The notes below the pieces were generated by a model, which searched no databases, had not been told where the DNA came from, and worked only from the letters and a program-made list of their open reading frames with translations. This document shows, one piece after another, positions 79 through 18,696 of a stretch of DNA of 37,764 nucleotides (within the stretch, counting starts at the first letter, position 1; the number at the start of each line of letters is the position of its first letter). The stretch is from an uncultured bacterium. GTDB lineage: Bacteria > Planctomycetota > UBA1135. A program made the position numbers and the translations under genes. The stretch is taken from the NCBI GenBank assembly GCA_964011335.1, contig CAXGOF010000001.1, forward strand, positions 1 through 37,764, given 5' to 3'.

Positions 79-789
79 TTAATTTGGTAAATCGAGGGCG
101 GTTAATTGTTTTTCTATGTGTGGTTGCCATCCGCGGTTGGCCATGGGGCTAGCAGGGGAGGGATGCAGGATAGTACTGATTTTGACGTCGTAGTCCGTCA
201 AAGTTTTTGCCGCGCGCGATTCTGCGAACTTGCCAATGCCGATAACCCATTCAGGTTTTAAATAGTCGACTGTTTTACGCAAGGCATCGTCGCAAATCGC
301 AAACAGCTCATTGCGTTTTGCGGCTTTGAATTTGTCAGGAGTAAAATTACGGCCGCCTTCTTCCATGAAGACGAGTGGGCAGTAATTGCATACATAATAG
401 TAATCAGCAAAGGCGTCGGCGGATTCGAAACGATCGGCAACCCATCCCCATAAGCGGCGTCCGCTAACTTCACTACGTTGACAGTCGAAGCCTTCAATCG
501 GGCGTTTAGGATGAATAAAGTCAGGCTGTTTGACGCGGCCGGTGACGTTAAGGAAATCGCGGGCGGCAGCAATTTCGCCAAAAGGCACTCCGGTTTGCGC
601 CATGCCCCAGGGCCCGGGATTCATCCCCAACAAAATCGCCGATGGATTCTTGCGCCCGTATTTGCCTAAGAATTTTTCATGTGGCGCGCGGGCGTATTGC
701 AGTGGATTGTATACATGCGTGACGGGCTCGGGAAAATCGAGTTGGTCGCAAGCTGCAGCTAAATCGCGAGAGATGGTGACTAGTTTCAT
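79..789 (-). CDS. single-strand-selective monofunctional uracil-DNA glycosylase (SMUG1, UDG family 3)
   Basis: Contains GMNPGPWGMAQTGVPFG and HPSPASPMANRGW, matching SMUG1 motifs GMNPGP(F/W)GMxQTGVPF and HPSPxNPxANxGW. I trimmed the track ORF (79..876) to the ATG at 789..787 (MKLVTISRDL...), because the upstream 29 codons look like read-through of the divergent promoter region. Confidence 0.85.
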   Translation of the reverse strand: MKLVTISRDLAAACDQLDFPEPVTHVYNPLQYARAPHEKFLGKYGRKNPSAILLGMNPGPWGMAQTGVPFGEIAAARDFLNVTGRVKQPDFIHPKRPIEGFDCQRSEVSGRRLWGWVADRFESADAFADYYYVCNYCPLVFMEEGGRNFTPDKFKAAKRNELFAICDDALRKTVDYLKPEWVIGIGKFAESRAAKTLTDYDVKISTILHPSPASPMANRGWQPHIEKQLTALDLPN

Positions 790-817
790 CGTTCTAAGTG
801 CGGGGGAACAGTATTCT

Positions 818-1483
818 ATGCTCATGCAACGCGTACTTGAACCCGAAGTTATGGATACTGCAGAAGACGCAGCCACTTATGACGCCATGGACCACAGCGC
901 GGTGAATGATTTGTTCATTGCACGCTTAAAAGCACTGGGCGTGGCTGGCTTGTGCCTTGATATAGGTTGTGGACCAGGTCATATTCCGCTGCAATTAGTG
1001 ACCGAATGTCCACAGGTTGATGTAGTGGCACTCGATCTTTCGAAGAACATGCTCTTGGTTGCTCTTGAACATCAAAAAGAGTGCGCCAATGGTGAGCAGG
1101 TCGAGTTCGTGCATGCTGACGCCAAAGGTCTCGGCTCCGATGACCACAGTTTTGACAGTGTGTTCTCTAATTCTATTTTGCATCATATCCCAGAGCCAAT
1201 CGATTTTTTGCGCGAAGCATGGCGCGTGTTAAAGCCAGGGGGAATGCTATTGATTCGAGATTTGTTTCGCCCCGATAGCGAAGAACGGGCCCGCGAATTG
1301 GTCGCTATGTATGCTAGCGAAGAATCGCAACACGCTCAAGATTTGTTTTACGACTCGTTGTGTGCCGCTCTCCGTCCGTGCGAGCTTGATGCGCTTGCAA
1401 AAGAAATCGGAATCCGTAATTACAAAATTATTACAGATTCCGATCGGCACATGTCATTGCAGATTAAAGCAAAGACCTATTAG
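818..1483 (+). CDS. class I SAM-dependent methyltransferase
   Basis: Motif I LDIGCGPGHIP, then acidic VALDLS, post-I HADA and ILHHI; N-terminus RVLEPEVMDTAEDAATYDAMDH is typical of this group. Start set at the ATG at 818 (MLMQRVLEPE...). The track ORF from 530 overlaps the SMUG1 gene antisense. Confidence 0.85.
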   Translation: MLMQRVLEPEVMDTAEDAATYDAMDHSAVNDLFIARLKALGVAGLCLDIGCGPGHIPLQLVTECPQVDVVALDLSKNMLLVALEHQKECANGEQVEFVHADAKGLGSDDHSFDSVFSNSILHHIPEPIDFLREAWRVLKPGGMLLIRDLFRPDSEERARELVAMYASEESQHAQDLFYDSLCAALRPCELDALAKEIGIRNYKIITDSDRHMSLQIKAKTY

Positions 1484-4404
1484 TAGATTACTTCGGATAC
1501 TAAGTTAGACTTGACCGAGTCAGTGCCGCCCACGCCACGCTTGGCAACTACCTGCACATAAGCTGTTGCGCCAACAGGCGCATTGGATGGGATGCTAACA
1601 TTAATGCCGGCTGTGCCAAAAGCGTTTACGCTAGCTGTGCCAACATGATAAATCGGTTGCGCCAGGTCAAGAGCTAGGCCGCCGAGTTGTGGCGGGGGAT
1701 AAGCACCAGAATTGAGCGACACTAAGAAGTAAATGTTTTCTCCAACAGTGCCATTGGTGGCTGTGAAGCCAGATAGTCCGCCAGCTACTATTGGAGCAAC
1801 ACTTAAATTTAAGTCGTGCGGTAATTCAAATTCACCAATCCAAGTGAGCCATCCTGATGTCCTGAATTCGTTATGGCTCCAATATTTGCCTGGGGCAACG
1901 GGATCTTCTTCGAGTCCGGAATAATCTCCCCAGCGATTGCCCGTTTCTGGCGAAGTACTAGATTGCAAAAGTTCTGGCGAGCGGAAAGTTCCAGTTGGGT
2001 CAGAAGCAGTGCGGAGGGCTGATTCAATGCTAATGTATTGTGACGATGATGAGCGTGAGAATGAAATCGCCGCGGTACCACTTGCGCTAACGTTGATGTC
2101 GCCAAACCAAGTGTGTTGCCCACTGCCATAATCTAGGGTCCCAGATTGTGCCAATGCCGGAGATGACCCTGATGTCGGCCAACCGTTTAAGTCGATTTCA
2201 TACCATCTTACTTGGCAAGCATTATTGTTGCCAGTGTTGTGACACAACCACAATTTGCCGTTGCGCACCACACCGTTCTTGATGCGGTAGTCGATGGTTG
2301 CAGCTTGATTAGAAGTGCCCATTTGGCTGGCATTTGGCGGAAAGCTATATGGCGGCACCGATAGGTATTGGCTGTGCAAAACCGGGCTACCATTTGGGTC
2401 GGTAATTGCTCGCAACATGATTTGAGTTGAGCTGCCAGCATAGGTTGTGCCAAAGTAAGCCGCGCTACTTGTCGCGTCGTAATTTTTTGTTGCGCCAAGC
2501 GATTGCGTGCTAGTGGAACACTGTTTTTGCTTCATTGTGACCGAAGCGCCGTTGATGAGTTTACTCATATCCCACATGAAAATTCTGTTGCCGCCACCGC
2601 TAAAGCAATCACCTGCTAAGAATAAAGCATCTTTGTTAATGCCCATATTCGGAAAATCAAGGAACACGCAAGTCGAAGTTACCGGGAAGCGGTATTTGTG
2701 CCATGTGCCATTTGGATCGTTGTCGTCCGATACCGCAATACAAATCGCATCGTTATTTCCGGCGCCATCAGCTGCAGCGACGACATAACGTTCAGTATGC
2801 GGATCGTATAAAGCGACCGGGTCAAAAACGAAACCGCCCGCACCTACGGAGCTCCAGAAACTTACAAGGCTATCGGAATAACTTTGATTGCCGCCCTTGT
2901 CAAAAATACGGATGCCGCCATTTACTACAGCAACGATGTGGTTGGGGCCAACGGCTAAATCAGGGTCAGGTGGTGTCCAGCCTGTTGAGCTAAATGCTTG
3001 GAAACCGCTGATACCGCCTAGAGCCATTGGTGGGGTCGTCGGCGCTGGCGCGACAAAGAATGGGTCGTAAACAGGTTTTGCCTCATTGCCATAAACATCG
3101 CTGAGCTCTAGGCCGGAGCCGGCGGCGCGAGCAACGACGGCTTCAGGCTTTTCTGGCTGTAGTGATTCTGGTACTAGAAAGCTGAGCCCCACTGCGCGAT
3201 GGTCGGTGCCGGTGTTACCGTGCCACGCCGCGATGATTTGATCTTGCGATGACCAAAGTAGATGCTTGCCGTTGTGTCCGACTTGCAAATTTTGCTCGCC
3301 CTCATCAAAAATGTTTAGGCGCAGTACTTCGCCATTCAGCTCGCCTTCGGCGGAATACTTTTGCGCAAAAACAGAAGTCATTTCATCCGGACGGTGTCCT
3401 GGGCCGCGCCAGAGTTTGTTTTGATGAGCGGTGTAGGCAACAATAAATTCGCCGTTGTCAGCAACCGCAACTTGTCCGCCTGAGCGCATGTCACTGTTCG
3501 CTTGTGGTACGATGAACTCATCAGCGACAGGGCTGAGGTCGCTATTAAAGCGACGTGCGGTGACATCGAACTGGCTGCCGTCGAGAGTGCTCATCCAGCT
3601 AACCACGAAAGACCCGTCATTCGCAGAGTCGATAGACGGCTCAAAAGCTAAAGATGCGGCGCCATCGTGCGCTAAAAACAATTCTTGAGACTTGTTCATT
3701 TGCTCATCGAAGCCTATAAGGCTGCCTTGGATGCCCTCTGGCGATCCGCTCAAATCCGTGCAGGCCCATGCGGCAAGAATGCCCTGTGGGTGAGGAGCTA
3801 GAGAAATGAGATTAAAGCCGCGTTCATCACTTGCATGGAGAATAAAATCTTCAGTCAAGGCTCGCCCTTGCTGATTGAAAACGCGCCCAAAAAGAGCGTT
3901 AACGTTATTTTTTTCGCTTACCCAGGCAGCCATGATGTTGCCGTTAGGTAGTGCGCAACAGACACCATCGCGCTGATTGCCAACGATGTCGCTATTCACG
4001 CGAAACTCGTCAGACTGTGCGGTGCATGTGCGATTTCGCACATCGAAACGGCGTCCGTAAACTTCAGTGCCAGCACCATCTTGCCCGATTGAGCGCCAAA
4101 AAACCCAAGCCACGTCGTTGTCATCAATAAAAACAGATGGCTTGGTCTGCTCGCGCGGAAGGTACTGATTGACGTGAATTTCAGTGCCGATTGGGCGGCC
4201 TAGCGGGTCGAGGTATTGTGCAAATACACCAAAAGATCCTTGTTCTTGGCGCCTTGAGCCCCATACAGCCAATATATTGCCTTGTGAATTGGTGGCGATG
4301 CTCGCCTCTGTTTGGCGGTTGTTGGTGAAAGTATTGGCCTGAACGTCAAATTGAGCGCTACCAGGAAGCTGTGTCGCAGCAAGGAAAATGAGTGTTAGTA
4401 TCAT
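1480..4404 (-). CDS. large secreted repeat protein: signal peptide, 7 x ~55-aa propeller-like repeats, sialidase/BNR-like beta-rich middle domain, ~110-aa C-terminal module
   Basis: Long uninterrupted ORF. The track start at 4425 is a TTG, so I prefer the in-frame ATG at 4404 (MILTLIFLAATQLPGSAQ, a signal peptide). Repeats carry hydrophobic-x-[AV]-W-x-S ... G-[VI]-[FY]-[AG]-x-[RKY]-[FLY]. No confident family name. Confidence 0.8.
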   Translation of the reverse strand: MILTLIFLAATQLPGSAQFDVQANTFTNNRQTEASIATNSQGNILAVWGSRRQEQGSFGVFAQYLDPLGRPIGTEIHVNQYLPREQTKPSVFIDDNDVAWVFWRSIGQDGAGTEVYGRRFDVRNRTCTAQSDEFRVNSDIVGNQRDGVCCALPNGNIMAAWVSEKNNVNALFGRVFNQQGRALTEDFILHASDERGFNLISLAPHPQGILAAWACTDLSGSPEGIQGSLIGFDEQMNKSQELFLAHDGAASLAFEPSIDSANDGSFVVSWMSTLDGSQFDVTARRFNSDLSPVADEFIVPQANSDMRSGGQVAVADNGEFIVAYTAHQNKLWRGPGHRPDEMTSVFAQKYSAEGELNGEVLRLNIFDEGEQNLQVGHNGKHLLWSSQDQIIAAWHGNTGTDHRAVGLSFLVPESLQPEKPEAVVARAAGSGLELSDVYGNEAKPVYDPFFVAPAPTTPPMALGGISGFQAFSSTGWTPPDPDLAVGPNHIVAVVNGGIRIFDKGGNQSYSDSLVSFWSSVGAGGFVFDPVALYDPHTERYVVAAADGAGNNDAICIAVSDDNDPNGTWHKYRFPVTSTCVFLDFPNMGINKDALFLAGDCFSGGGNRIFMWDMSKLINGASVTMKQKQCSTSTQSLGATKNYDATSSAAYFGTTYAGSSTQIMLRAITDPNGSPVLHSQYLSVPPYSFPPNASQMGTSNQAATIDYRIKNGVVRNGKLWLCHNTGNNNACQVRWYEIDLNGWPTSGSSPALAQSGTLDYGSGQHTWFGDINVSASGTAAISFSRSSSSQYISIESALRTASDPTGTFRSPELLQSSTSPETGNRWGDYSGLEEDPVAPGKYWSHNEFRTSGWLTWIGEFELPHDLNLSVAPIVAGGLSGFTATNGTVGENIYFLVSLNSGAYPPPQLGGLALDLAQPIYHVGTASVNAFGTAGINVSIPSNAPVGATAYVQVVAKRGVGGTDSVKSNLVSEVIY

Positions 4405-4448
4405 GCTATTGACTATAACATGCAACTTATGCTGTTGTTGTCCGATGT

Positions 4449-4526: not shown

Positions 4527-7500
4527 ATGATAGTCCAGATAAAAAAAATAACCCTTGCATTGCTAATCAGCTGCGTAGCTGCTTTAGTCGGATGTGTTCC
4601 TGCTTCGTCTACCGCCTCTGCGACTGGCGCATTCAGTGTAGTTAGCGTAAATATTCTTGAAGGGCAAACATGGGCACTTAATCGCCCTATACAAATTAAA
4701 TTCAATCACGCGGTTGATTTTAGTTCCGTCAGCTTGCAGGCCGTTTCGTTTCGTTCGACGGATCTTCTTGGTTCTCCTGTAACCGGCCAATTCGAGATTG
4801 ACCCAGCCGACGATACCACTCTTATCTTTAATCCGGCTTGTCCTACCAACGAAGCTCAAGATAACGGCGCTTTTGTCCCTGGTGGCATCAGCTATGTTCT
4901 TGAAATCCCTATTGCATCGGAATCCGTTTCCGTCCTGCGGGACACCGATGGTCGATTGCTTAGCTCAGGCTTGCAGCGTAGTTTCATTACGCGCCCGTCT
5001 TCCCAGCCTTTTGACGATTTTGTTCCCGGTGCTCCAGTAGTGGTTGACCCAGCGAACGATGTTTCTTTCCCAACCGGCGTGAACTTTTGGGCGAACAGCG
5101 AAGGTGACATTTCGATTCGCTTTAATCAATCGATTGATGCGCGTCCAACGAACTTAAATTCTGACCGCCTTTTAGTCTTATATTCAAACAGCGAGATAGG
5201 GGTAGCTGGAGAAAACGATTACGATTTAACAAATAAAGTACCAGGCGAATGGGTGCTTATTGAGAATTGTTCTAATGGTGGTTCTTTAGTTGAATTCCAC
5301 ATCACCGGGGTGATGCCAATTAATCGCAACCTCGCGATTAGCATGACACCATCGTTTACTGACATCGTTGGTCAAAGCAATAGCGCAACAACAACCTTGG
5401 CGACCCACCAGGTTCCAAGATTGAGCGATGTTTACGGCACAAATATCGGTACATGGCTGGACGCCAACGAAACTGTTGATGAATTCACCGATAGTTTTGA
5501 TGATCAAAACTATCTTGACCTCGATCAACAATTACCTTTACCACTTGCGACAGTTAACGACGGATTCATAGCAGCGAGTTTCGATTATCCTGGCACATAC
5601 GTCTCGGAAGACAAAAATTTTCACATTGACGATACGGCCCCACGTGATATTTATACGGACTCAACGACGGCATTTTCCGACTCCGATGGTACCGTACATA
5701 TCCCGCAGTCTGGTGTTCTAAATGTTCATGACTTTACAATCGATTCCGGGGCCACTCTTCGTGGTCGCGGTGTAAATCCTTTAGTCATTTACGCTACAGG
5801 TACTGTAACGATTAACGGTGAAATAAATGTTTCTGGCAATAACGCTGTATGGCCGTCCGGATTGAACTCACCGCAGTTCATCGAAGGTGGCGCTCTAGGC
5901 GAATGCGGCGGCGGTCAAGGTGGCGATGCTTCGCAAATTGGTCTTGCTGAAACTCCGCGTGCTGAATCTGGTGATGGCCCATTCGGTATCGAAGGCATTG
6001 GTGGCCAAGGTGGCGAAGGTATTTTTAACGGTAGAACTGCTAGCACAGGTCTTGCTGGGCAAACGGCTCGCTCTGCTGCAGGTGGAGGCGGTGGTGGCTT
6101 TGCGCTTACTGAAAACCAGTCCGTACTGTGGCCTAACTGGAAAACCGCAGGTAACTGGGCGCCTTCGTACTTCATTTATACTGGGCCCGACCATAAAATC
6201 TCGCGTCACACCGCGGCTGTGGGCGTTAATGGTATTTTTGGATCAGAAGCAGGTGTCCGGGGCGTTTCAGCAGGTTCATTGTTGCCGGGTGGATGGGGTG
6301 TCGGTATTCCATTTGGGATGGAAGACGCGATGCAAGACAGCTTTGTTACCGAAGCTATTAATGGCACTAATGCGCCTGACTACGACCCTGCCTGGACGAC
6401 GGGGCCGGTTCCACCATTTAACTTCGGCCACCCGACCCAGGGCGCCGACCCAGGGGCTGGGGGACAAGCCATTTTTGCCAATGATAACGATCTAGCGAAC
6501 GATTTCTACGGCACACGCCTGACGATAGACGGTTCCGTTCGGCAAGGAGAGTTGCTGGCGCCATGGGCTGGCTCCGGAGGCGGAGGGGGTGGCGACTCGA
6601 TGATGATTAACGTTTGGGATGCCGACGGTGACGGTGATCCCTCGAATGATGCTGTTGAAAGCTTTTATCCGGTGGTCCCCTTTGCGCGTAACCAAGGAGG
6701 CACTGGCAATGGGTGGTACGCTTACCAAAAAGGTGCCGGCGGCGGTGGCGGTGGTGGCCAACTGATAATCATGTCAATTGGCATGATCGTTATCGGCAAC
6801 AACGCTGAGATTAAAGCGAACGGTGGTATTGGTTATTCGGGTGAGTCACTAATTTATACAGACCAAGGCGTTTCTGGTTCAGGCGGTGGCTCAGGTGGTC
6901 ACATTATTCTTCATTCTTCTGCCGGAGTAGACTTTTCAGCGGTGTCCATTGGCACAGCTGCAAGCTCTGCAGAGATAGGTAACTTGACCGACAATGGTGT
7001 GGTCCAAGCTTTTGGCGGACGTCGCGGCCAATGTGGCGGCGAATGGACTAACCCATCCAATGGTGGTGGTACGGGCACTTACGCGTTCGGTCGTGGTGGT
7101 GCCGGAGCAAATGGGGTCATTCAAATTCACGTGCCGGATCCCGCAGAAGACATCGTCTGGCATCCATCAGCTGCAACTGGCATTGCTGAATACCTAGGTG
7201 AAGTTCCGATCCCTACCGATCGTGTCGAAGAGATTTTGTCGCACGTTTCGTTTCCGCAGTCTTACGCATTGATCCCGTTTTATTCGGCTTCATCGATGGT
7301 GGCTTCAGAATGGATTGACACCGGTTTGGCAGAACTACGTTTGCAAGACCCAAGCACTTACCCGGATTGGGCGAACGGCAATGCCGAATTGATGGGCTTT
7401 GCGGGTATCAGCGCCACCGATGGCAAAGTTAACCGTCAGGGAAGTCAGTCAAAGGTCGGCCAACTAAGCCCAATCGTTGGTGGCCCAGTAGATGTCGCAA

Positions 7501-8030
7501 ATGTTGGTCTTTATGAGATGACTATCTCTGATGCATCAAGTGTATTTTCAACCCAAACGCAATTTTTGCGCCTGCCAGAATTGTTGTTGGGTTACGATAT
7601 TAGGCCTAACGCCTCTGGTTCCAGCGCATTCGAAATCATCGATGTGGTTTACAATAATTCCACAGACGAAATGACGTTTAGTACGCCAAACTCAGATGGC
7701 GGCATGTCTTTTGTTGTCAATCCAGGCGGCAACTGGTCAATCGTGCCTAAGTTCTTTCGCGTTGATGCTAATGGTGTTAAGAATAGATTACCAAGCAGTT
7801 CTGACATATACTTCGAGTTCCAGGGCGCTGACGAAAGTGCGCCTGGCCTGAACATTCCTGGAACACCGCTACTTGGCGATAATGTCTGGACGTCAGATTT
7901 AAGCCTCTTGGCTGGTGCTCGGTTCTTGCGTTACCGCATTCGTTTCGATGCTGATGCGCAAAACGCAGGTATTGACCTGAGCACACCACTGACGGTTATC
8001 AGCTACATTAAGATTCCTTACGTCTTTTAA
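4527..8030 (+). CDS. giant surface lipoprotein: lipobox, SbsA/Big_5-like Ig domains, central parallel beta-helix-like region with poly-Gly turns
   Basis: ATG start. N-terminus MIVQIKKITLALLISCVAALVGC has the lipobox L-V-G-C (Cys23). N-terminal segments resemble bacterial Ig-like (SbsA_Ig) domains. The centre has runs such as GGGGGGFAL, GSGGGGGGDSMMI, GAGGGGGGGQLIIMSIGMIVIGNNAEIKANGGIG and GSGGGSGGHIILHS. Confidence 0.8.
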   Translation: MIVQIKKITLALLISCVAALVGCVPASSTASATGAFSVVSVNILEGQTWALNRPIQIKFNHAVDFSSVSLQAVSFRSTDLLGSPVTGQFEIDPADDTTLIFNPACPTNEAQDNGAFVPGGISYVLEIPIASESVSVLRDTDGRLLSSGLQRSFITRPSSQPFDDFVPGAPVVVDPANDVSFPTGVNFWANSEGDISIRFNQSIDARPTNLNSDRLLVLYSNSEIGVAGENDYDLTNKVPGEWVLIENCSNGGSLVEFHITGVMPINRNLAISMTPSFTDIVGQSNSATTTLATHQVPRLSDVYGTNIGTWLDANETVDEFTDSFDDQNYLDLDQQLPLPLATVNDGFIAASFDYPGTYVSEDKNFHIDDTAPRDIYTDSTTAFSDSDGTVHIPQSGVLNVHDFTIDSGATLRGRGVNPLVIYATGTVTINGEINVSGNNAVWPSGLNSPQFIEGGALGECGGGQGGDASQIGLAETPRAESGDGPFGIEGIGGQGGEGIFNGRTASTGLAGQTARSAAGGGGGGFALTENQSVLWPNWKTAGNWAPSYFIYTGPDHKISRHTAAVGVNGIFGSEAGVRGVSAGSLLPGGWGVGIPFGMEDAMQDSFVTEAINGTNAPDYDPAWTTGPVPPFNFGHPTQGADPGAGGQAIFANDNDLANDFYGTRLTIDGSVRQGELLAPWAGSGGGGGGDSMMINVWDADGDGDPSNDAVESFYPVVPFARNQGGTGNGWYAYQKGAGGGGGGGQLIIMSIGMIVIGNNAEIKANGGIGYSGESLIYTDQGVSGSGGGSGGHIILHSSAGVDFSAVSIGTAASSAEIGNLTDNGVVQAFGGRRGQCGGEWTNPSNGGGTGTYAFGRGGAGANGVIQIHVPDPAEDIVWHPSAATGIAEYLGEVPIPTDRVEEILSHVSFPQSYALIPFYSASSMVASEWIDTGLAELRLQDPSTYPDWANGNAELMGFAGISATDGKVNRQGSQSKVGQLSPIVGGPVDVANVGLYEMTISDASSVFSTQTQFLRLPELLLGYDIRPNASGSSAFEIIDVVYNNSTDEMTFSTPNSDGGMSFVVNPGGNWSIVPKFFRVDANGVKNRLPSSSDIYFEFQGADESAPGLNIPGTPLLGDNVWTSDLSLLAGARFLRYRIRFDADAQNAGIDLSTPLTVISYIKIPYVF

Positions 8031-12082: not shown

Positions 12083-12559
12083 CTATTTATCGCTTCTTAC
12101 TAGGGTTAAAGCTGCTGAATTCATGCAGTAGCGCTTTCCTGTTGGCTGTGGGCCATCGTCAAACACGTGCCCTAAGTGTGCATCACACTCTCCACAACGC
12201 ACCTCAGTGCGTTCGCGAAACAGCTTGCGATCAGAGTGCAGGCTCACAGCGCTATCGTCTATAGGTTGCCAATAGCTGGGCCAACCTGTGCCCGACTCGT
12301 ATTTGCTATCAGAGGAGAACAGTGGGTTAGAACAACATACGCACTTGTAGTAACCATCCGCCTTCTCGTCCCAGTACTCGCCGCTGAAAGCTGGCTCAGT
12401 TCCGCCTTTTTGAGTAACTTCGTACTGTATGTCACTCAAAACTGGCTTGGTTCGACCTTCTGGACTCATTTTATCGGGTATTTCGTTCAAACTTTCGTTT
12501 TTACTGCACCCTAATATCAGAAAAGCGCATAAAGGCAGCATATATTCGGTTATTCCCAT
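12083..12559 (-). CDS. msrB: peptide-methionine (R)-S-oxide reductase MsrB, lipoprotein-type signal
   Basis: Two CxxC zinc motifs (CVCCSNPLF and CGECDAHLGHVF), GTGWPS, and the catalytic RYCMNS. N-terminus LPLCAFLILGCS has a lipobox. Confidence 0.9.
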   Translation of the reverse strand: MGITEYMLPLCAFLILGCSKNESLNEIPDKMSPEGRTKPVLSDIQYEVTQKGGTEPAFSGEYWDEKADGYYKCVCCSNPLFSSDSKYESGTGWPSYWQPIDDSAVSLHSDRKLFRERTEVRCGECDAHLGHVFDDGPQPTGKRYCMNSAALTLVRSDK

Positions 12560-14064: not shown

Positions 14065-14777
14065 TGACACGAGTGTTGTTGGGTAGTGGCGGCTTTCGTG
14101 GAGAAGCGCGCCGCGACTTTCTGTGCGCGGAAATGCGGGAATTCTTTGGCGATATCCAGCAGTTGCTGTTCGTGCCTTATGCCGGTGGCGACTACGACAA
14201 GTATGTCAATCTAATGATTGACGCTGGGTTTCACGCGGGCTACGACTTAGTTGGCATTCACACTTTCGATGATGCTGCGGCAGCTGTAGAAAATGCTGAA
14301 GCCGTTTACGTTGGCGGGGGTAATACTTTTCGCTTAATAGACAAACTGCACAGCAATGGGACATTGCAGGCCTTAAAACAACGCGTCGCAGGCGGTATGC
14401 CTTACATGGGAGTGAGCGCTGGTTCAAACGTGGCCTGTCCAACCATGCAAACCACTAACGATATGCCGATTGTTTACCCACCATCGTTTGACAGCTTACA
14501 TATAGTTCCATATCAACTAAACGCACATTACTTTGATGGCGCAACATTTGTTAAGCATAACGACGCATTCGAACAGCACTTCGGAGAAACGCGGTTAGAT
14601 CGTATTCGCGAGTTTCATGAGTGTAATGACGCACCAGTTATAGGGCTGCGCGAGGGTAGTATTATCGTTCATGAACACGGTAAAGCGTTGCTGCGAGGTA
14701 ATAGCTGCGCTATATTCTTGAAAGGGAAGAAGGCCAAAGAAGTTGCCGACGGTAGCGACCTTTTTGACTATCTATAG
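14064..14777 (+). CDS. pepE: dipeptidase E (peptidase family S51)
   Basis: YVGGGNTFRLIDKL...MPYMGVSAGSNVACPTMQTTNDMPIV matches the PepE Ser-nucleophile region. The start overlaps the upstream stop (TAATG). Confidence 0.85.
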   Translation: MTRVLLGSGGFRGEARRDFLCAEMREFFGDIQQLLFVPYAGGDYDKYVNLMIDAGFHAGYDLVGIHTFDDAAAAVENAEAVYVGGGNTFRLIDKLHSNGTLQALKQRVAGGMPYMGVSAGSNVACPTMQTTNDMPIVYPPSFDSLHIVPYQLNAHYFDGATFVKHNDAFEQHFGETRLDRIREFHECNDAPVIGLREGSIIVHEHGKALLRGNSCAIFLKGKKAKEVADGSDLFDYL

Positions 14778-14799
14778 CATCTTCTAAGAAGGCAGTGCT

Positions 14800-15723
14800 T
14801 CACTTTACAACGCGTTCTACTTCATAGCCCATGCCTTTGAGCAATGCGCCGACCCCATGAGGTCCGGCAAAGTGCAATGCTCCAAAGGCATAGAAAGTCA
14901 CAGACTCTGGATTGGCTTTGATGCGCTTGTTGATACGGTCAGCCATGTTGTCATTGCGCACAGTGAGCAAGGCATCGAAGGCATCCTTTTCTAGTTGGCT
15001 AGCGTCAAGCAGGTTGGCATTGGCGAGTTCCCATAGGCCATCGATGTCACCTTCAAGGTAGTCATTAAGCATTAACTCGGTATCCGAAATTTCGTTGTCG
15101 GCTTTTTCAATCATGCTGTCAACGGCTATACCTAACAATTTAATTTGATCTTCTTCGCTGCCGAAGGCGAGTACCGCAAGTTGCTCATCGATGGTTTCGA
15201 TTCCACCTACTTCTTTGCCTTCTTCGCGTGCGCGATTATTCAGTTGCATGTCCAATGCAACACCTTGCATATAAGGCATCGCTTCAATCATCTGCAAATA
15301 CATGCCCACCATCCAGGGGCGCCATTTATTCACCATATTCATGACCATTTTGTCTGATTTAACCAATTCATTTATTTTGGCATACATGTCGGCAGATATC
15401 AGATCGCTCAGGTAGGTGCCCTCAGGCAACATGGACTCTACGTTGACCCTCGCTGACAATTCAATTTGAGACTCTTTAAGCTCGGTAAAGATGGCGTCGG
15501 AATCGGTAAAAGCAGCTTCAACGGCAGGTGCCAAGGTCGTAACCCGCGGATCGGCAACGTGCATAGTGCCAAATAGGTACGAGGTGTTGTTCTCGCTAGT
15601 GACCTTCCAGAGCAAGGGGTTCTGCCCGGTGACGCTTGGCGTCGGTGCTCCCTCAGAGCATGATATGAAGACACTTCCGATTGTCAGCGCAGTAATTACG
15701 CAATATTTAATCCACTTATTCAT
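14800..15723 (-). CDS. TraB/GumN family protein (lipoprotein signal)
   Basis: PLLWKVTSENNTSYLFGTMHVADPR and C-terminal FYAFGALHFAGPHGV are TraB/GumN family signatures. N-terminal lipobox FISC. Confidence 0.8.
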   Translation of the reverse strand: MNKWIKYCVITALTIGSVFISCSEGAPTPSVTGQNPLLWKVTSENNTSYLFGTMHVADPRVTTLAPAVEAAFTDSDAIFTELKESQIELSARVNVESMLPEGTYLSDLISADMYAKINELVKSDKMVMNMVNKWRPWMVGMYLQMIEAMPYMQGVALDMQLNNRAREEGKEVGGIETIDEQLAVLAFGSEEDQIKLLGIAVDSMIEKADNEISDTELMLNDYLEGDIDGLWELANANLLDASQLEKDAFDALLTVRNDNMADRINKRIKANPESVTFYAFGALHFAGPHGVGALLKGMGYEVERVVK

Positions 15724-15760: not shown

Positions 15761-16792
15761 ATGGATACTGCCAACCGTACCTTTGTCGCGCTACTCGCAA
15801 TCATCACTACTATTCTTGTGGGCTGGGTGTTACATGTCGGGGCCAGCATTTTGCAGCCGCTGGTTATCGCTTTTTTACTTGCCTCAATGTTGCAGCCAGT
15901 TATTGTTAGGCTTGCACGGCTGAAAATTCCGCCAACGATTGCAGTCGTGTTCTTAGTGGCGCTGATTGGTTTAGGCTTGGCTCAGGGCGGTTTGATGCTG
16001 CAGTCGTCTATCGAAGATTTCTTTACTAACTCAGGTGCAGAAACATTAGTCGACGGCGTGCATGACCAATTGGTGAAGTCGTCCATTCCTGAGAGAGTGC
16101 AAAACTTAATCGTGGACTCTCTTAAAAAATCCGACTTGCAGGGAGTCGCTAGTGAGCTGATTGGCGGCGGCGTTGGGTTTGCAAAAGGTTTGATGTTAAT
16201 AATGATTTACATGAGCTTTATCTTTGCTGAGCAAAAAATATTCAGGCGTAAAATTTTGTCCATTGCCGGAGATCGTGAAGCAGAAGCTTCGCAGATGCTA
16301 GAAAAAATGGCGCGTGGCATTCAACGCTATCTTTCTGTGAAAACGGTCGTGTCGTTGCTGACGGGTTCACTGTGCTACGTCGTGCTTGTAAGCCTCGATG
16401 TGCCATATGCTTTGTTGTTTAGCCTGTTAACTTTCCTGCTGAACTTCATCCCAACTTTCGGCTCAATTATCGCAGGATTCTTCCCGACCATTACAGCGCT
16501 AGGTAGTGGCGCACCATGGTCAACAGCACTCACCGTGATGGGGGCCTATTTGGTAATCAATTTGACGCTAGGCTCATATATCGAACCTAAAATACTCGGA
16601 CGCGAACTCAATCTCTCACCACTAGTCGTCGTGGTGTCCGTTGTGGTGTGGGCTGGAATATGGGGAGTTGTCGGCGCGTTTTTGGCAGTGCCTCTGACTT
16701 CAGCCATTCAGATTATGCTGCTCAGCTCTGAGCGTACACGACCAGTGGCGATATTACTTAGCATCGGACCCGGCGAAAAGAGTAAAGGCTAA
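15761..16792 (+). CDS. AI-2E family transporter (PerM/UPF0118)
   Basis: Multi-pass membrane protein with NFIPTFGSIIAGFFP and LSPLVVVVSVVVWAGIWGVVGAFLAVPL, typical of AI-2E/PerM permeases. Confidence 0.85.
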   Translation: MDTANRTFVALLAIITTILVGWVLHVGASILQPLVIAFLLASMLQPVIVRLARLKIPPTIAVVFLVALIGLGLAQGGLMLQSSIEDFFTNSGAETLVDGVHDQLVKSSIPERVQNLIVDSLKKSDLQGVASELIGGGVGFAKGLMLIMIYMSFIFAEQKIFRRKILSIAGDREAEASQMLEKMARGIQRYLSVKTVVSLLTGSLCYVVLVSLDVPYALLFSLLTFLLNFIPTFGSIIAGFFPTITALGSGAPWSTALTVMGAYLVINLTLGSYIEPKILGRELNLSPLVVVVSVVVWAGIWGVVGAFLAVPLTSAIQIMLLSSERTRPVAILLSIGPGEKSKG

Positions 16793-17250
16793 TCGTCGTC
16801 TTCAGGATCGTATATCTCATGCGAGCTTTCTTTGGCATTACGCAAACTCTTATAGTGTGCGTTAGCCGCCTCGATGTCGCCTTTATGCAATGCTAACTCT
16901 AGCTCAAGCAGAGTGTCGGCTACAGTCAAGAGTTGCCGCTTGAAATTAATTTCGTACTTAGCTTTTTCAACGCCTGCCTCCCCAGGATAATCGGGGCAAT
17001 ACGGCAGCGCATCAATCGCGAGTTGCTGCATTGCTTGGATGTCTTTAATGCACTTGGCGTGTTGCTCGACTTCGGGAATAGACTTACGCACTGCGCGCAT
17101 GTGGTCTTTCATTTGCTCCATAATCTCTTCGAGCGGCGAGTCGCTATGTTCATAACCTGAATCTCGAGCAAGGTCTTGAGAGAAGGTCATTACGGTAAAG
17201 CCGGCAGCAATTAGGCCAGCAATAAAGAGAGTAGAGAAGAGTTTTGTCAT
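16789..17250 (-). CDS. secreted four-helix-bundle protein, cytochrome b562-like
   Basis: ATG at 17250 gives the signal peptide MTKLFSTLFIAGLIAAGFTVMTFS (the track start at 17313 is a TTG). LEEIMEQMKDHM aligns with the b562 N-terminus LEDNMETLNDNL (Met ligand). C-terminal AHYKSLRNAKESSHEIY aligns with LKTTRNAYHQKY (His ligand). Confidence 0.5.
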   Translation of the reverse strand: MTKLFSTLFIAGLIAAGFTVMTFSQDLARDSGYEHSDSPLEEIMEQMKDHMRAVRKSIPEVEQHAKCIKDIQAMQQLAIDALPYCPDYPGEAGVEKAKYEINFKRQLLTVADTLLELELALHKGDIEAANAHYKSLRNAKESSHEIYDPEDDD

Positions 17251-17415
17251 ACTGAAAAAGGCCGCCAAAGGTTCGCCGCTTATCAAGTTCAACCCCCACG
17301 GTGTCCATGACAAACTAGAATCTTTGACGGGCCAGAATTGCTGATTATCAGCACTCTGGTGTAACCCTTATTGTATCAGTTCTCGGGCGCTTGCGCTCAG
17401 CATATATGCGATGCG

Positions 17416-17453
17416 AAAAAAAGGTTAGAGTGGCCTTTGAGTCCGCTCTAACC
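17416..17453 (-). terminator. rho-independent terminator downstream of the selenoprotein gene
   Basis: An 11-bp stem GGTTAGAG(C/T)GG pairs 17423..17433 with 17443..17453 (one G-U pair) around a 9-nt loop. On the minus strand it is followed by TTTTTTT (17422..17416). Confidence 0.6.
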
Positions 17454-17489
17454 TTATATCTCGGTGGCGCCTGGACGCGCCAAATCTTT

Positions 17490-18512
17490 TTAGAAGTCCG
17501 ACTCTGCTTCGCCAGCTTCTTCAAGAATTCCGTCAACAACTTCTTGCATGCGTTCGTCGAGTCCGCCTAAATCAGTTGCACGTTGCGCCCACACTTTGGC
17601 GTTGGCTTCGTCCTCTAAGTACTGGGCACAAAAGAATGCACATGTAATATAAATGGAGCGTGAGTCTTCATCTGCAGTAACGTTGCCCGTGGCATGCAGC
17701 TTTTCTGCAAGATCCACAAAGACAGGCAGGTCTTCTATCGAACCCAAAGAGTTCATCTTGCTAATGACAACCATCACCATCAATCCGTGTTCGTTTTTCG
17801 GATCCCAATCCGCGACAAGTTTAATGTCGTCTTCATTAGCGCCTGTCGCCATAACGGCAGCTCGAAGAAGATCGATCTTTACCGCAGGCTCTTGAGTCAG
17901 TGCAATACCTTGACGGACGATAGCAGCATATCCAGCAATTGCTGGTGAGCCGGCTTCCATCTTGCTAAGTTCGCCAGCGGCGCGAACGGCAACAGCAACC
18001 TTGTCTTCTGCAGCAGCAAACTCGGCCTCGAGTTCGCGCACAGCTACCAGTGCTTTTTTGCCTGTATCACGAATGGCGGCAACATCAGCCAAATAGTCGG
18101 CAGGGTCGAGGTCTTTGTAGCCTGTTTGGCCATAAGCCTCGCCTATAGCACTGACAATCATTACGGTGGGGAAGCCCTGAACACCATATTTCGCCATTAA
18201 CTCGTCGTTGCGCTGTGGGTTTGGCACAGCCGCCTTGGCCTCTTCTCCTTGTGGGAAATCAAGTGAAACCAAAACAAAATCATTCTGGGCTGCAGTGTAA
18301 AATTCACTGTGCACGAAAACACGTTCATGCAGTTTTGTGCACCAACTTCACCAGTCTGAGCCGGTAAAATCGACAATCATGTCGCGGCCAGTTTCGGCAG
18401 CGACGGCAGCTGCTTCATCGAAGTCAGCATACCATTTGGCGCCATGCTCTTCTTGAGCTATGGCAGCGGATGAGCCTGCAACTAGCAGGGCAAGGGTGAG
18501 AATTTTTTTCAT
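17490..18512 (-). CDS. secreted thioredoxin-fold protein with predicted selenocysteine (U-S-W-C active site; TGA at 18348..18350 recoded), plus ~230-aa acidic helical C-terminal extension
   Basis: The frame of track ORF 17490..18314 stays open upstream through a single TGA to the ATG at 18512..18510. Translation: MKKILTLALLVAGSSAAIAQEEHGAKWYADFDEAAAVAAETGRDMIVDFTGSDW[TGA]SWCTKLHERVFVHSEFY... It has a signal peptide. The TGA occupies the first Cys of the Thioredoxin_7/DUF255-type ...DW-C-x-W-C-x-x-L... motif, and a hairpin follows immediately downstream. Confidence 0.7.
18309..18342 (-). promoter_or_regulatory. candidate bacterial SECIS hairpin
   Basis: mRNA positions +9..+42 from the U of UGA read GUGCACAAAAC-UGCAUGAACGU-GUUUU-C-GUGCAC. 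That gives 6 bp + 5 bp of stem with one bulged C, possibly extended by a U-G and a G-C pair with a bulged U. The apical loop lies about 20-27 nt after the UGA. Confidence 0.45.
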
Positions 18513-18581: not shown

Positions 18582-18610
18582 AAAAAAAGCCACTAGCCGT
18601 GAGGCTAGTG
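18582..18610 (-). terminator. rho-independent terminator after tRNA-Asn
   Basis: An 8-bp stem CACTAGCC/GGCTAGTG (18591..18598 with 18603..18610) has a 4-nt loop. On the minus strand it is followed by GCTTTTTTT (18590..18582). Confidence 0.6.
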
Positions 18611-18620
18611 ACTTTTGATT

Positions 18621-18696
18621 TGGCTCCTCGAACAGGACTTGAACCTGTGACAAGCTGATTAACAGTCAGCTGCTCTACCAACTGAGCTATCGAGGA
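18621..18696 (-). tRNA. tRNA-Asn (anticodon GTT), CCA encoded
   Basis: The reverse complement is TCCTCGATAGCTCAGTTGGTAGAGCAGCTGACTGTTAATCAGCTTGTCACAGGTTCAAGTCCTGTTCGAGGAGCCA. It folds as a cloverleaf: acceptor TCCTCGA/TCGAGGA, D stem GCTC/GAGC, anticodon stem GCTGA/TCAGC with loop CTGTTAA, and T stem ACAGG/CCTGT with TTCAAGT. Confidence 0.95.

Follow-up and report, generated by a model that had tools for sequence, protein, structure and literature searches.

Here we report a gene that very probably encodes an exported selenoprotein of the thioredoxin fold in an uncultured planctomycete (GTDB lineage Bacteria; Planctomycetota; UBA1135). The stretch analysed, called the window below, comprises 37,764 nt (GenBank assembly GCA_964011335.1, contig CAXGOF010000001.1, positions 1 to 37,764 of the forward strand). 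On its minus strand, a single reading frame extends from an ATG at 18512..18510 to a TAA at 17492..17490 and comprises 341 codons (340 plus TAA) with one internal stop, a TGA at 18350..18348 (codon 55). We conclude that UGA 55 is, with high probability, decoded as selenocysteine (Sec, U), yielding one exported protein of 340 residues.

The joined translation begins with MKKILTLALLVAGSSAAIAQEE and reads DMIVDFTGSDW-(TGA)-SWCTKLHERVF around the stop. A mechanical list of open reading frames (ORFs) splits the gene into 17490..18314 (274 aa, GTG start) and 18348..18512 (54 aa, ATG start). An earlier note on this DNA, made from the letters alone, had joined the two pieces and read the redox motif as U-S-W-C; its frame, TGA position and translation around the stop, including the N-terminus, were exact. 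The parts of the gene are as follows; L-numbers denote related loci.

17490..18512, minus strand: complete gene of the probable selenoprotein, with the in-frame TGA (Sec) at codon 55 (from the sequence; frame kept through the TGA in L001, L003, L005, L006, L007 and L008)
18348..18350, minus strand: TGA codon 55, inferred Sec (aligns with the invariant first Cys of CxxC; TGA kept in at least 31 distinct sequences of the same architecture)
18339..18350, minus strand: redox motif U-S-W-C, codons 55-58 (from the translation)
18310..18331, minus strand: bacterial SECIS-type hairpin, U20-A41 (from folding, consensus criteria and covariation)
18456..18512, minus strand: Sec-pathway-type signal peptide, residues 1-19 (MKKILTLALLVAGSSAAIA, then QEE; read from the sequence)
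18150..18434, minus strand: Thioredoxin_7 domain, DsbH-like, residues 27-121 (PF13899 match; 2ju5 by sequence and fold)
17493..18110, minus strand: family-specific all-helical C-terminal domain, residues 135-340, with about 10 helices and an acidic tail (AF2 model)

Conservation of the TGA and the hairpin downstream

A search of 5.8 billion proteins returned two classes of homologues. All matches at 45-96 % identity were 266-281 aa long and covered about 80 % of the query, which is the truncation by gene callers that the earlier note had anticipated. Matches at 33-42 % identity extended over the full length (about 330-360 aa), had an unbroken Thioredoxin_7 domain and read DFTGSDW-C-G-W-C-(I/K)-(K/R)-L. 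In an alignment of 23 family members (A1), C55 and C58 are invariant, and column 55 holds Cys in 17/17 full-length homologues from databases; the window and six orthologues have TGA there. The TGA thus occupies exactly the column of the active-site Cys, as had been proposed. All 23 members share a similar N-terminus, which in the window protein consists of a basic n-region, a hydrophobic core and an A-x-A cleavage motif; a lipobox Cys is absent.

The six TGA orthologues were recovered by fetching the flanking DNA of truncated homologues (L001, L003, L005, L006, L007 and L008). In each of them the upstream frame is open, encodes a similar signal peptide and contains a single TGA in the same column. 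Their motifs are U-SW-C (L001, L003, L005), U-HY-C (L006), U-PY-C (L007) and U-GG-C (L008), and their identity to the window protein falls from 72 % to about 36 % (L008). Among the window, L001, L003 and L005, the 54 codons upstream of the TGA differ by 14-19 synonymous and 6-10 non-synonymous changes (19 and 7 between the window and L003), and the mature part of these codons by 6-12 and 2-6, respectively. Because of this synonymous excess, the region upstream of the TGA must be translated in this frame. Downstream of the TGA, synonymous differences likewise outnumber non-synonymous ones among the closer orthologues.

We also scanned 241 million metagenome records with a DNA pattern for D-F-[TS]-G-S-D-W-TGA-x-x-Cys. 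The scan returned 57 stretches, 55 of which are intact read-through Thioredoxin_7 genes; about 30 have the same 335-342-aa architecture and are 30-97 % identical to the window protein. In total, the TGA is kept in at least 31 distinct sequences of this architecture at 30-96 % identity. The motif varies among these orthologues (U-SW-C, U-GW-C, U-PY-C, U-HY-C, U-SF-C, U-GG-C, U-GA-C), and Cys forms read C-GW-C. The earlier note had allowed that orthologues might be broken at varying positions; in the six loci and in 55 of the 57 metagenomic matches the TGA stands in one and the same column, a pattern that a pseudogene, a split gene or an assembly error therefore cannot explain. According to database labels, family members of both forms belong mainly to Planctomycetota, and the thioredoxin domain alone occurs in Verrucomicrobiota. 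In a rough neighbour-joining tree without support values, the Sec forms fall into at least two clades interleaved with Cys forms.

The TGA is followed by a hairpin of the bacterial selenocysteine insertion sequence (SECIS) type. The published consensus comprises an apical loop of 3-9 nt, an upper stem of 4-16 bp, a minimum free energy of -7.5 kcal/mol or lower, a G among the first two loop nucleotides (usually G[G|U]) and a UGA-to-loop distance of 16-37 nt (PMC13188914). Numbered from the U of UGA, the window hairpin extends from U20 to A41 (18331..18310), with an 8-bp stem including one G.U pair and a folding energy of -8.7 kcal/mol. Its 6-nt loop, C28-G29-U30-G31-U32-U33 (18323..18318), has G at the second position followed by U and begins 24 nt from the UGA, so that the element agrees with the consensus in every respect. 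Rfam returned no SECIS family match in the window, nor around the TGA at E<=10, as expected for such short, gene-specific elements.

The hairpin is specific to the Sec forms. A custom script picked out, for each unique sequence, the best hairpin in the permitted SECIS position, and Cys-form controls were obtained by a profile scan of genome contigs with a pattern requiring a Cys codon. The median energy was -10.5 kcal/mol for 31 Sec forms of the same architecture vs -3.9 kcal/mol for 37 Cys forms of that architecture, and a hairpin of -8 kcal/mol or lower with GU at the loop start was found in 27/31 Sec forms and 0/37 Cys forms.

Two registers of the element can be distinguished. In clade A, to which the window belongs, the loop lies at nt 28 and the element reads UGCAYGAA-CGUGUU-UUCGUGCA; in clade B the loop lies at nt 22 and the element reads (R)CGCCUC-CGUGNN-GAGGUGU or GACCUC…GAGGUC. 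Stem pairs were counted directly in the structural register, the MAFFT alignment having misplaced clade A: the seven pairs are 95 % paired vs 32-60 % with the 3' arm slid by 1-3 nt. Double compensatory changes occur at four stem pairs (A-U/C-G, A-U/U-A, G-C/C-G, C-G/G-C), and the first four loop bases, CGUG, are invariant. In the Escherichia coli SECIS, the loop bases are G23/U24, and SelB contacts G23 and a bulged U17 (PMC8659212). Clade B, with its loop G and U at nt 23 and 24, resembles this fdhF element, in which the hairpin directly follows the UGA and its apical loop contains G and U; the fdhF loop is GGUC rather than CGUGNN, and the loop of clade A, including the window, lies 6 nt further downstream (G29/U30). 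GGUCU loops are present in some other architectures that carry the same protein motif.

As a separate observation, L020, L025 and other Cys forms keep the clade-B stem (CGCCUC…GAGGUG, -10 to -12 kcal/mol) with an ACAA loop without GU; this stem may be left over from a lost SECIS or be a codon-determined precursor of one.

Domain architecture and relation to known families

Domain searches of the window protein were done with codon 55 read as Cys. The PF13899 match (residues 27-121; E 2.1e-14; 53.9 bits, gathering cutoff 27) crosses the TGA, which bears out the assignment to Thioredoxin_7 made in the earlier note; the overlapping generic thioredoxin model Thioredoxin_2 (PF13098) scores lower (43.9 bits, cutoff 27). 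Among NCBIfam models the best is 'disulfide reductase DsbH' (NF043050; 83.4 bits, equivalog cutoff 190), and the thioredoxin-type selenoprotein models Trx7/PDZ, VPGUxxT and TsoB match weakly or by their generic thioredoxin part only. When the family profile was compared with the PDB, the DsbH oxidoreductase structure 2ju5 was by far the best match (E 2.4e-27), with the active-site context FTGSDWCxWCIK in common.

The AlphaFold model of P0020, a full-length Cys homologue (42 % identical), has a mean predicted local distance difference test score (pLDDT) of 91.6 and a predicted template modelling score of 0.83. It shows disordered residues 1-22, equivalent to the signal peptide (pLDDT < 50), a thioredoxin fold, a long connecting helix and a helix bundle. 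Foldseek placed DsbH (2ju5) first for this model (E 8e-7; template modelling (TM) score 0.70 on the target), followed by a Thioredox_DsbH-domain protein and DsbD-gamma domains.

DsbH, a reducing dithiol oxidoreductase of the periplasm that resembles thioredoxin and DsbD-gamma, has been described as unreported outside chlamydiae (PMC5193440). Like the window protein, DsbH of Chlamydia pneumoniae (2ju5, NF043050) carries the active-site context FTGSDW-C-x-W-C-I-K and comes from the Planctomycetes-Verrucomicrobia-Chlamydiae (PVC) group; it is secreted to the periplasm, as predicted for the window protein, and the two are alike in sequence and fold. DsbH, however, is a stand-alone Cys protein of about 150-160 aa, whereas in the window protein Sec takes the first active-site position and a helical domain of about 206 aa is added. 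The window protein is thus DsbH-like by sequence and fold but not a DsbH orthologue, because it scores below the equivalog cutoff and has the extra 206-aa domain. No DsbD/CcdA-type redox partner was found by Pfam among the ORFs of the window.

The C-terminal domain (residues 135-340) has no match in Pfam, TPR models included, and no PDB fold match at E<=1e-3 with Foldseek. In its own AF2 model it forms about 10 helices (pLDDT 94.5) with weak likenesses (best E 0.019) to TPR proteins (LapB, TMq 0.47; KLC2, 0.39) and to 14-3-3. An exhaustive phmmer search of 1.84 billion (1.84e9) representative proteins found the domain in 56 clusters only, always C-terminal to the thioredoxin domain. The proteins that carry it are about 330-370 aa long or, as truncated calls of Sec forms, about 250-280 aa. 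More distant Thioredoxin_7 relatives in Verrucomicrobiota (P0100, P0104, P0107) have recognisable TPR repeats at the same place. The domain is thus a small, family-specific TPR-like solenoid. The C-terminal extension had been described as about 230 aa long and without a recognised family; the second statement stands for Pfam and for significant PDB folds, and the first has to be corrected to about 206 aa of TPR-like helical repeats. By analogy with the usual role of such domains, it probably holds a client or partner protein.

A similar order of domains, a thioredoxin fold followed by TPR-like helices, is found in the 'chaperedoxins' CnoX/YbbN, where the helical domain binds clients. CnoX is cytoplasmic. 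No CnoX structure was among the sequence or fold matches, and the helical domain of the window protein matches no TPR model of Pfam.

The replacement of the first Cys of CxxC by Sec in a thioredoxin fold is the classic and commonest type of bacterial selenoprotein, and the principle is not new. Several families of this type stand in two selenoprotein catalogues, namely the PF13098 'thiol:disulfide interchange protein' with UxxC (PMC13188914, exemplar WP_011366075.1), Thioredoxin_8 'thiol-disulfide isomerase-like' and Trx7/PDZ (CxxU). As in the window protein, Sec replaces the N-terminal Cys of CxxC in the catalogued thioredoxin-fold UxxC proteins, Cys homologues exist, and the UGA is closely followed by a bacterial SECIS. 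With its UxxC motif and a score above the PF13098 cutoff, the window protein might belong to the PF13098 entry, but PF13098 is a broad, generic thioredoxin model that overlaps PF13899, and PF13899 fits best. Trx7/PDZ (NF041199) is the only catalogued selenoprotein family built on Thioredoxin_7. It combines CxxU with a PDZ domain, whereas the window protein has UxxC, a helical domain and no PDZ domain and reaches 18.7 bits against a cutoff of 300. The two catalogues contain no DsbH-like or PF13899 UxxC family and no two-domain entry of thioredoxin plus helical domain, and a full-text literature search for a DsbH-type selenoprotein returned nothing relevant.

The motif DFTGSDW-TGA-x-x-Cys also occurs in at least three further architectures (L090, L094, L095, L104, L105, L110, L115, L117, L128, L130, L134, L136 and L142). 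These include a 148-aa stand-alone DsbH-like form, forms with N-terminal extensions of about 175-230 aa, tandem proteins whose first thioredoxin-like domain lacks CxxC (L095, L128) and a protein with a long low-complexity N-terminus (L142). DsbH is the best NCBIfam match, below the cutoff, for L105, L136, L090 and L128 as well as for the Cys homologue P0020.

The family is genuine, occurs widely in marine metagenomes, is consistently mis-annotated and is conventional in mechanism. All public calls found for the Sec forms are labelled 'hypothetical' or 'thioredoxin family' and are truncated, without signal peptide and active site, and this annotation can be corrected. Reductases of the DsbH type, which had been described from chlamydiae only (PMC5193440), are seen here to form a broad Sec/Cys family among metagenome-assembled genomes of planctomycetes and Verrucomicrobiota, and a poorly known reducing pathway of the periplasm is thereby extended. 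With its matched Sec and Cys forms and two SECIS registers that share one loop motif, the family amounts to a clean natural experiment, usable for studying SECIS evolution within a constrained coding sequence and for training selenoprotein finders. A wider proposal, which we put forward tentatively and rate somewhat short of probable, is that DFTGSDW-(U/C)-x-x-C marks an uncatalogued superfamily of DsbH-type periplasmic reductase selenoproteins, mainly in Planctomycetota and Verrucomicrobiota, with at least four architectures, repeated Sec/Cys exchange and a SECIS rebuilt in two registers (nt 22 and nt 28) around the same CGUG loop; its form with thioredoxin and helical domains would be a new selenium-dependent periplasmic 'chaperedoxin'.

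Readings of the TGA codon

Under the Sec reading, one mRNA would be translated from the ATG at 18512. At the UGA (18350..18348), the hairpin at 18331..18310 (loop CGUGUU) would recruit SelB.GTP.Sec-tRNA(Sec), and Sec would be inserted instead of termination, which we infer because this is the known bacterial mechanism. The 19-residue signal peptide would direct export via the Sec pathway. In the periplasm, the protein may act as a thiol-disulfide oxidoreductase, with the U-S-W-C selenolate/thiol pair on a thioredoxin fold of the DsbH / DsbD-gamma type and the selenolate as the attacking nucleophile, probably in the direction of disulfide reduction by analogy with DsbH. The TPR-like C-terminal domain would position the client or partner. 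The selenocysteine originally proposed for U-S-W-C is supported by the Cys/TGA column, the conservation of the TGA and the hairpin that is specific to Sec forms (27/31 vs 0/37).

Several points weigh against this reading. Neither selA, selB or selD nor tRNA-Sec (ARAGORN on 146 sequences) turned up in the window or in about 950 kb of related loci, a result that is uninformative rather than negative given their short flanks, and the same contigs yielded no second selenoprotein gene. The Sec and Cys sets are phylogenetically related, so that the p-value for the difference between their hairpin energies (Mann-Whitney p 6e-10) overstates independence, and the hairpins were enumerated with a custom script. 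The window hairpin has no bulged U equivalent to U17 of E. coli. The folding energy of the region is unremarkable relative to shuffled sequences (z -0.1 to -1.2 in windows of 41-74 nt), and stability alone was therefore not counted as evidence. A competing hairpin at nt 9-42 (18309-18342, minus strand; GUGCACAAAAC…GUUUU-C-GUGCAC) overlaps the SECIS-type hairpin and is more stable (-12.8 kcal/mol). The SECIS-type hairpin is both the minimum-free-energy and the centroid structure once nt 1-15 after the UGA are excluded, nucleotides that would lie in the mRNA channel of the ribosome with the UGA in the A site; in L001, L003 and L005, which have GUGUAC instead of GUGCAC in the 5' arm, it is the minimum-energy fold. 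Finally, the full-length fold model is that of the 42 %-identical Cys homologue and not of the window protein itself, and the analogy with DsbH is the sole basis for the reducing direction.

Read-through without Sec, in which position 55 receives an ordinary residue from a near-cognate tRNA for Trp, Cys or Arg, possibly with the hairpin as a stimulus, is unlikely. A stable hairpin near a stop codon can in principle promote such an event, and no Sec machinery was seen in the related loci or in the window, where Pfam searches of the ORFs found no sel genes and ARAGORN and Rfam found no tRNA-Sec. The hairpin, however, has SelB-type features, a small apical loop that opens with GU and the correct spacing, and the position is that of the catalytic Cys, where only Cys or Sec would work; a TGY codon, used by many relatives, would be simpler than a leaky stop kept over such divergence. 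We give still less credence to a pseudogene or split gene, that is, a nonsense mutation in a Cys-type gene of the thioredoxin family from which fragments or nothing would be made. Public calls do give only a 274-aa C-terminal piece and a 54-aa piece, but the same-column TGA recurs in at least 31 distinct sequences with no other stops or frameshifts, and synonymous changes exceed non-synonymous ones on both sides of it. Moreover, the annotated downstream starts vary between orthologues and fall inside the thioredoxin fold, which would be non-functional without its first strand, first helix and CxxC.

Very improbable, too, are two separate products, a secreted peptide of 54 residues and an independently initiated cytoplasmic protein of 274 residues. 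Both pieces are open and conserved, yet together they form one thioredoxin domain (PF13899, residues 27-121) and one compact fold in the AF2 model, no internal start is conserved (GTG, ATG or none, at varying positions), and relatives of the Cys form encode a single chain. The least probable explanation by our estimate, hardly to be entertained, is that TGA has been reassigned throughout the genome (to Trp or Gly, as in codes 4 and 25) or that sequencing or assembly was in error; the bare in-frame TGA is the only argument for it. The identical feature is present in dozens of independent assemblies. Stop codon usage in the 26 other genes of the window is TAA 17, TAG 6 and TGA 3; TGA is therefore a normal stop in this organism, no other gene needs read-through, and the event at codon 55 is site-specific. 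When all six frames were scanned for ORFs joined by one TGA, no second credible case emerged in the window: the remaining seven candidates are antisense to long real genes. An in-frame TGA is thus not a generic property of the window.

Genomic surroundings

The window matches the Tara Oceans scaffold TARA_SAMEA2619548 scaffold_756 (37,803 bp), and its locus is also present on a contig of 203,521 bp (ERZ976258 k127_336142). The gene is flanked by two further elements.

18585..18696: tRNA-Asn(GTT), 18621-18696, with its terminator hairpin, 18585-18616, minus strand (ARAGORN, Rfam, terminator scan)
17415..17453, minus strand: terminator-like hairpin after the stop codon, GGTTAGAG, a 15-nt loop and CTCTAACC, followed by a T run (read by eye)

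Since the tRNA-Asn directly upstream has its own terminator, the selenoprotein gene starts its own transcription unit. The same tRNA-Asn(GTT) is found directly upstream in L001 (994-1069), L003 (9624-9699) and L005 (9642-9717). The hairpin at 17415-17453 was passed over by the terminator scan, as its 15-nt loop exceeds the 8-nt limit of that scan. Gene order is shared with L003 and L005 on both sides of the selenoprotein gene: on one side GAPDH, PGK, a sulfatase, ribonucleotide reductase, Rpe, AccD, a hypothetical gene and the tRNA-Asn, and after the selenoprotein gene cytochrome b562, an AI-2E transporter, TraB, peptidase S51, GSDH, MsrB, MerR and IcmF.

A sigma-70 gene of the extracytoplasmic function (ECF) type (266 aa) lies 0-90 nt after the selenoprotein gene in L001 (2201-3001), L003 (10829-11629), L005 (10851-11651) and L007 (1357-2157). 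It is absent from the window at 17313-17490, where the terminator-like hairpin is followed by cytochrome b562 (16789-17313). The ECF sigma factor was rejected as a functional partner, being absent in the window, L006 and L008.

The gene at 12083-12559 (minus strand), called 'SelR' in Pfam, is methionine sulfoxide reductase B (MsrB; E 2e-50) without an in-frame TGA and was rejected as Sec machinery. On the contig of the window, 2.4 kb past its right end, L146 contains a radical-SAM/DUF3641 gene (14485-15447) of the family TIGR04167, which is listed as a GxxU selenoprotein; this copy ends in …AGAGSSCGGSLVQEV-TAA, the Cys form, and was rejected as a second selenoprotein.

Elsewhere in the window, two large divergent ORFs of 981 and 1167 aa (1480-4425, minus strand, and 4527-8030, plus strand) have no Pfam match at E<=1e-4. 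In the ORF list, a UDG-superfamily ORF (79-876, minus strand) and a methyltransferase ORF (530-1483, plus strand) share about 350 nt, in all likelihood through one over-extended start codon (GTG or TTG).

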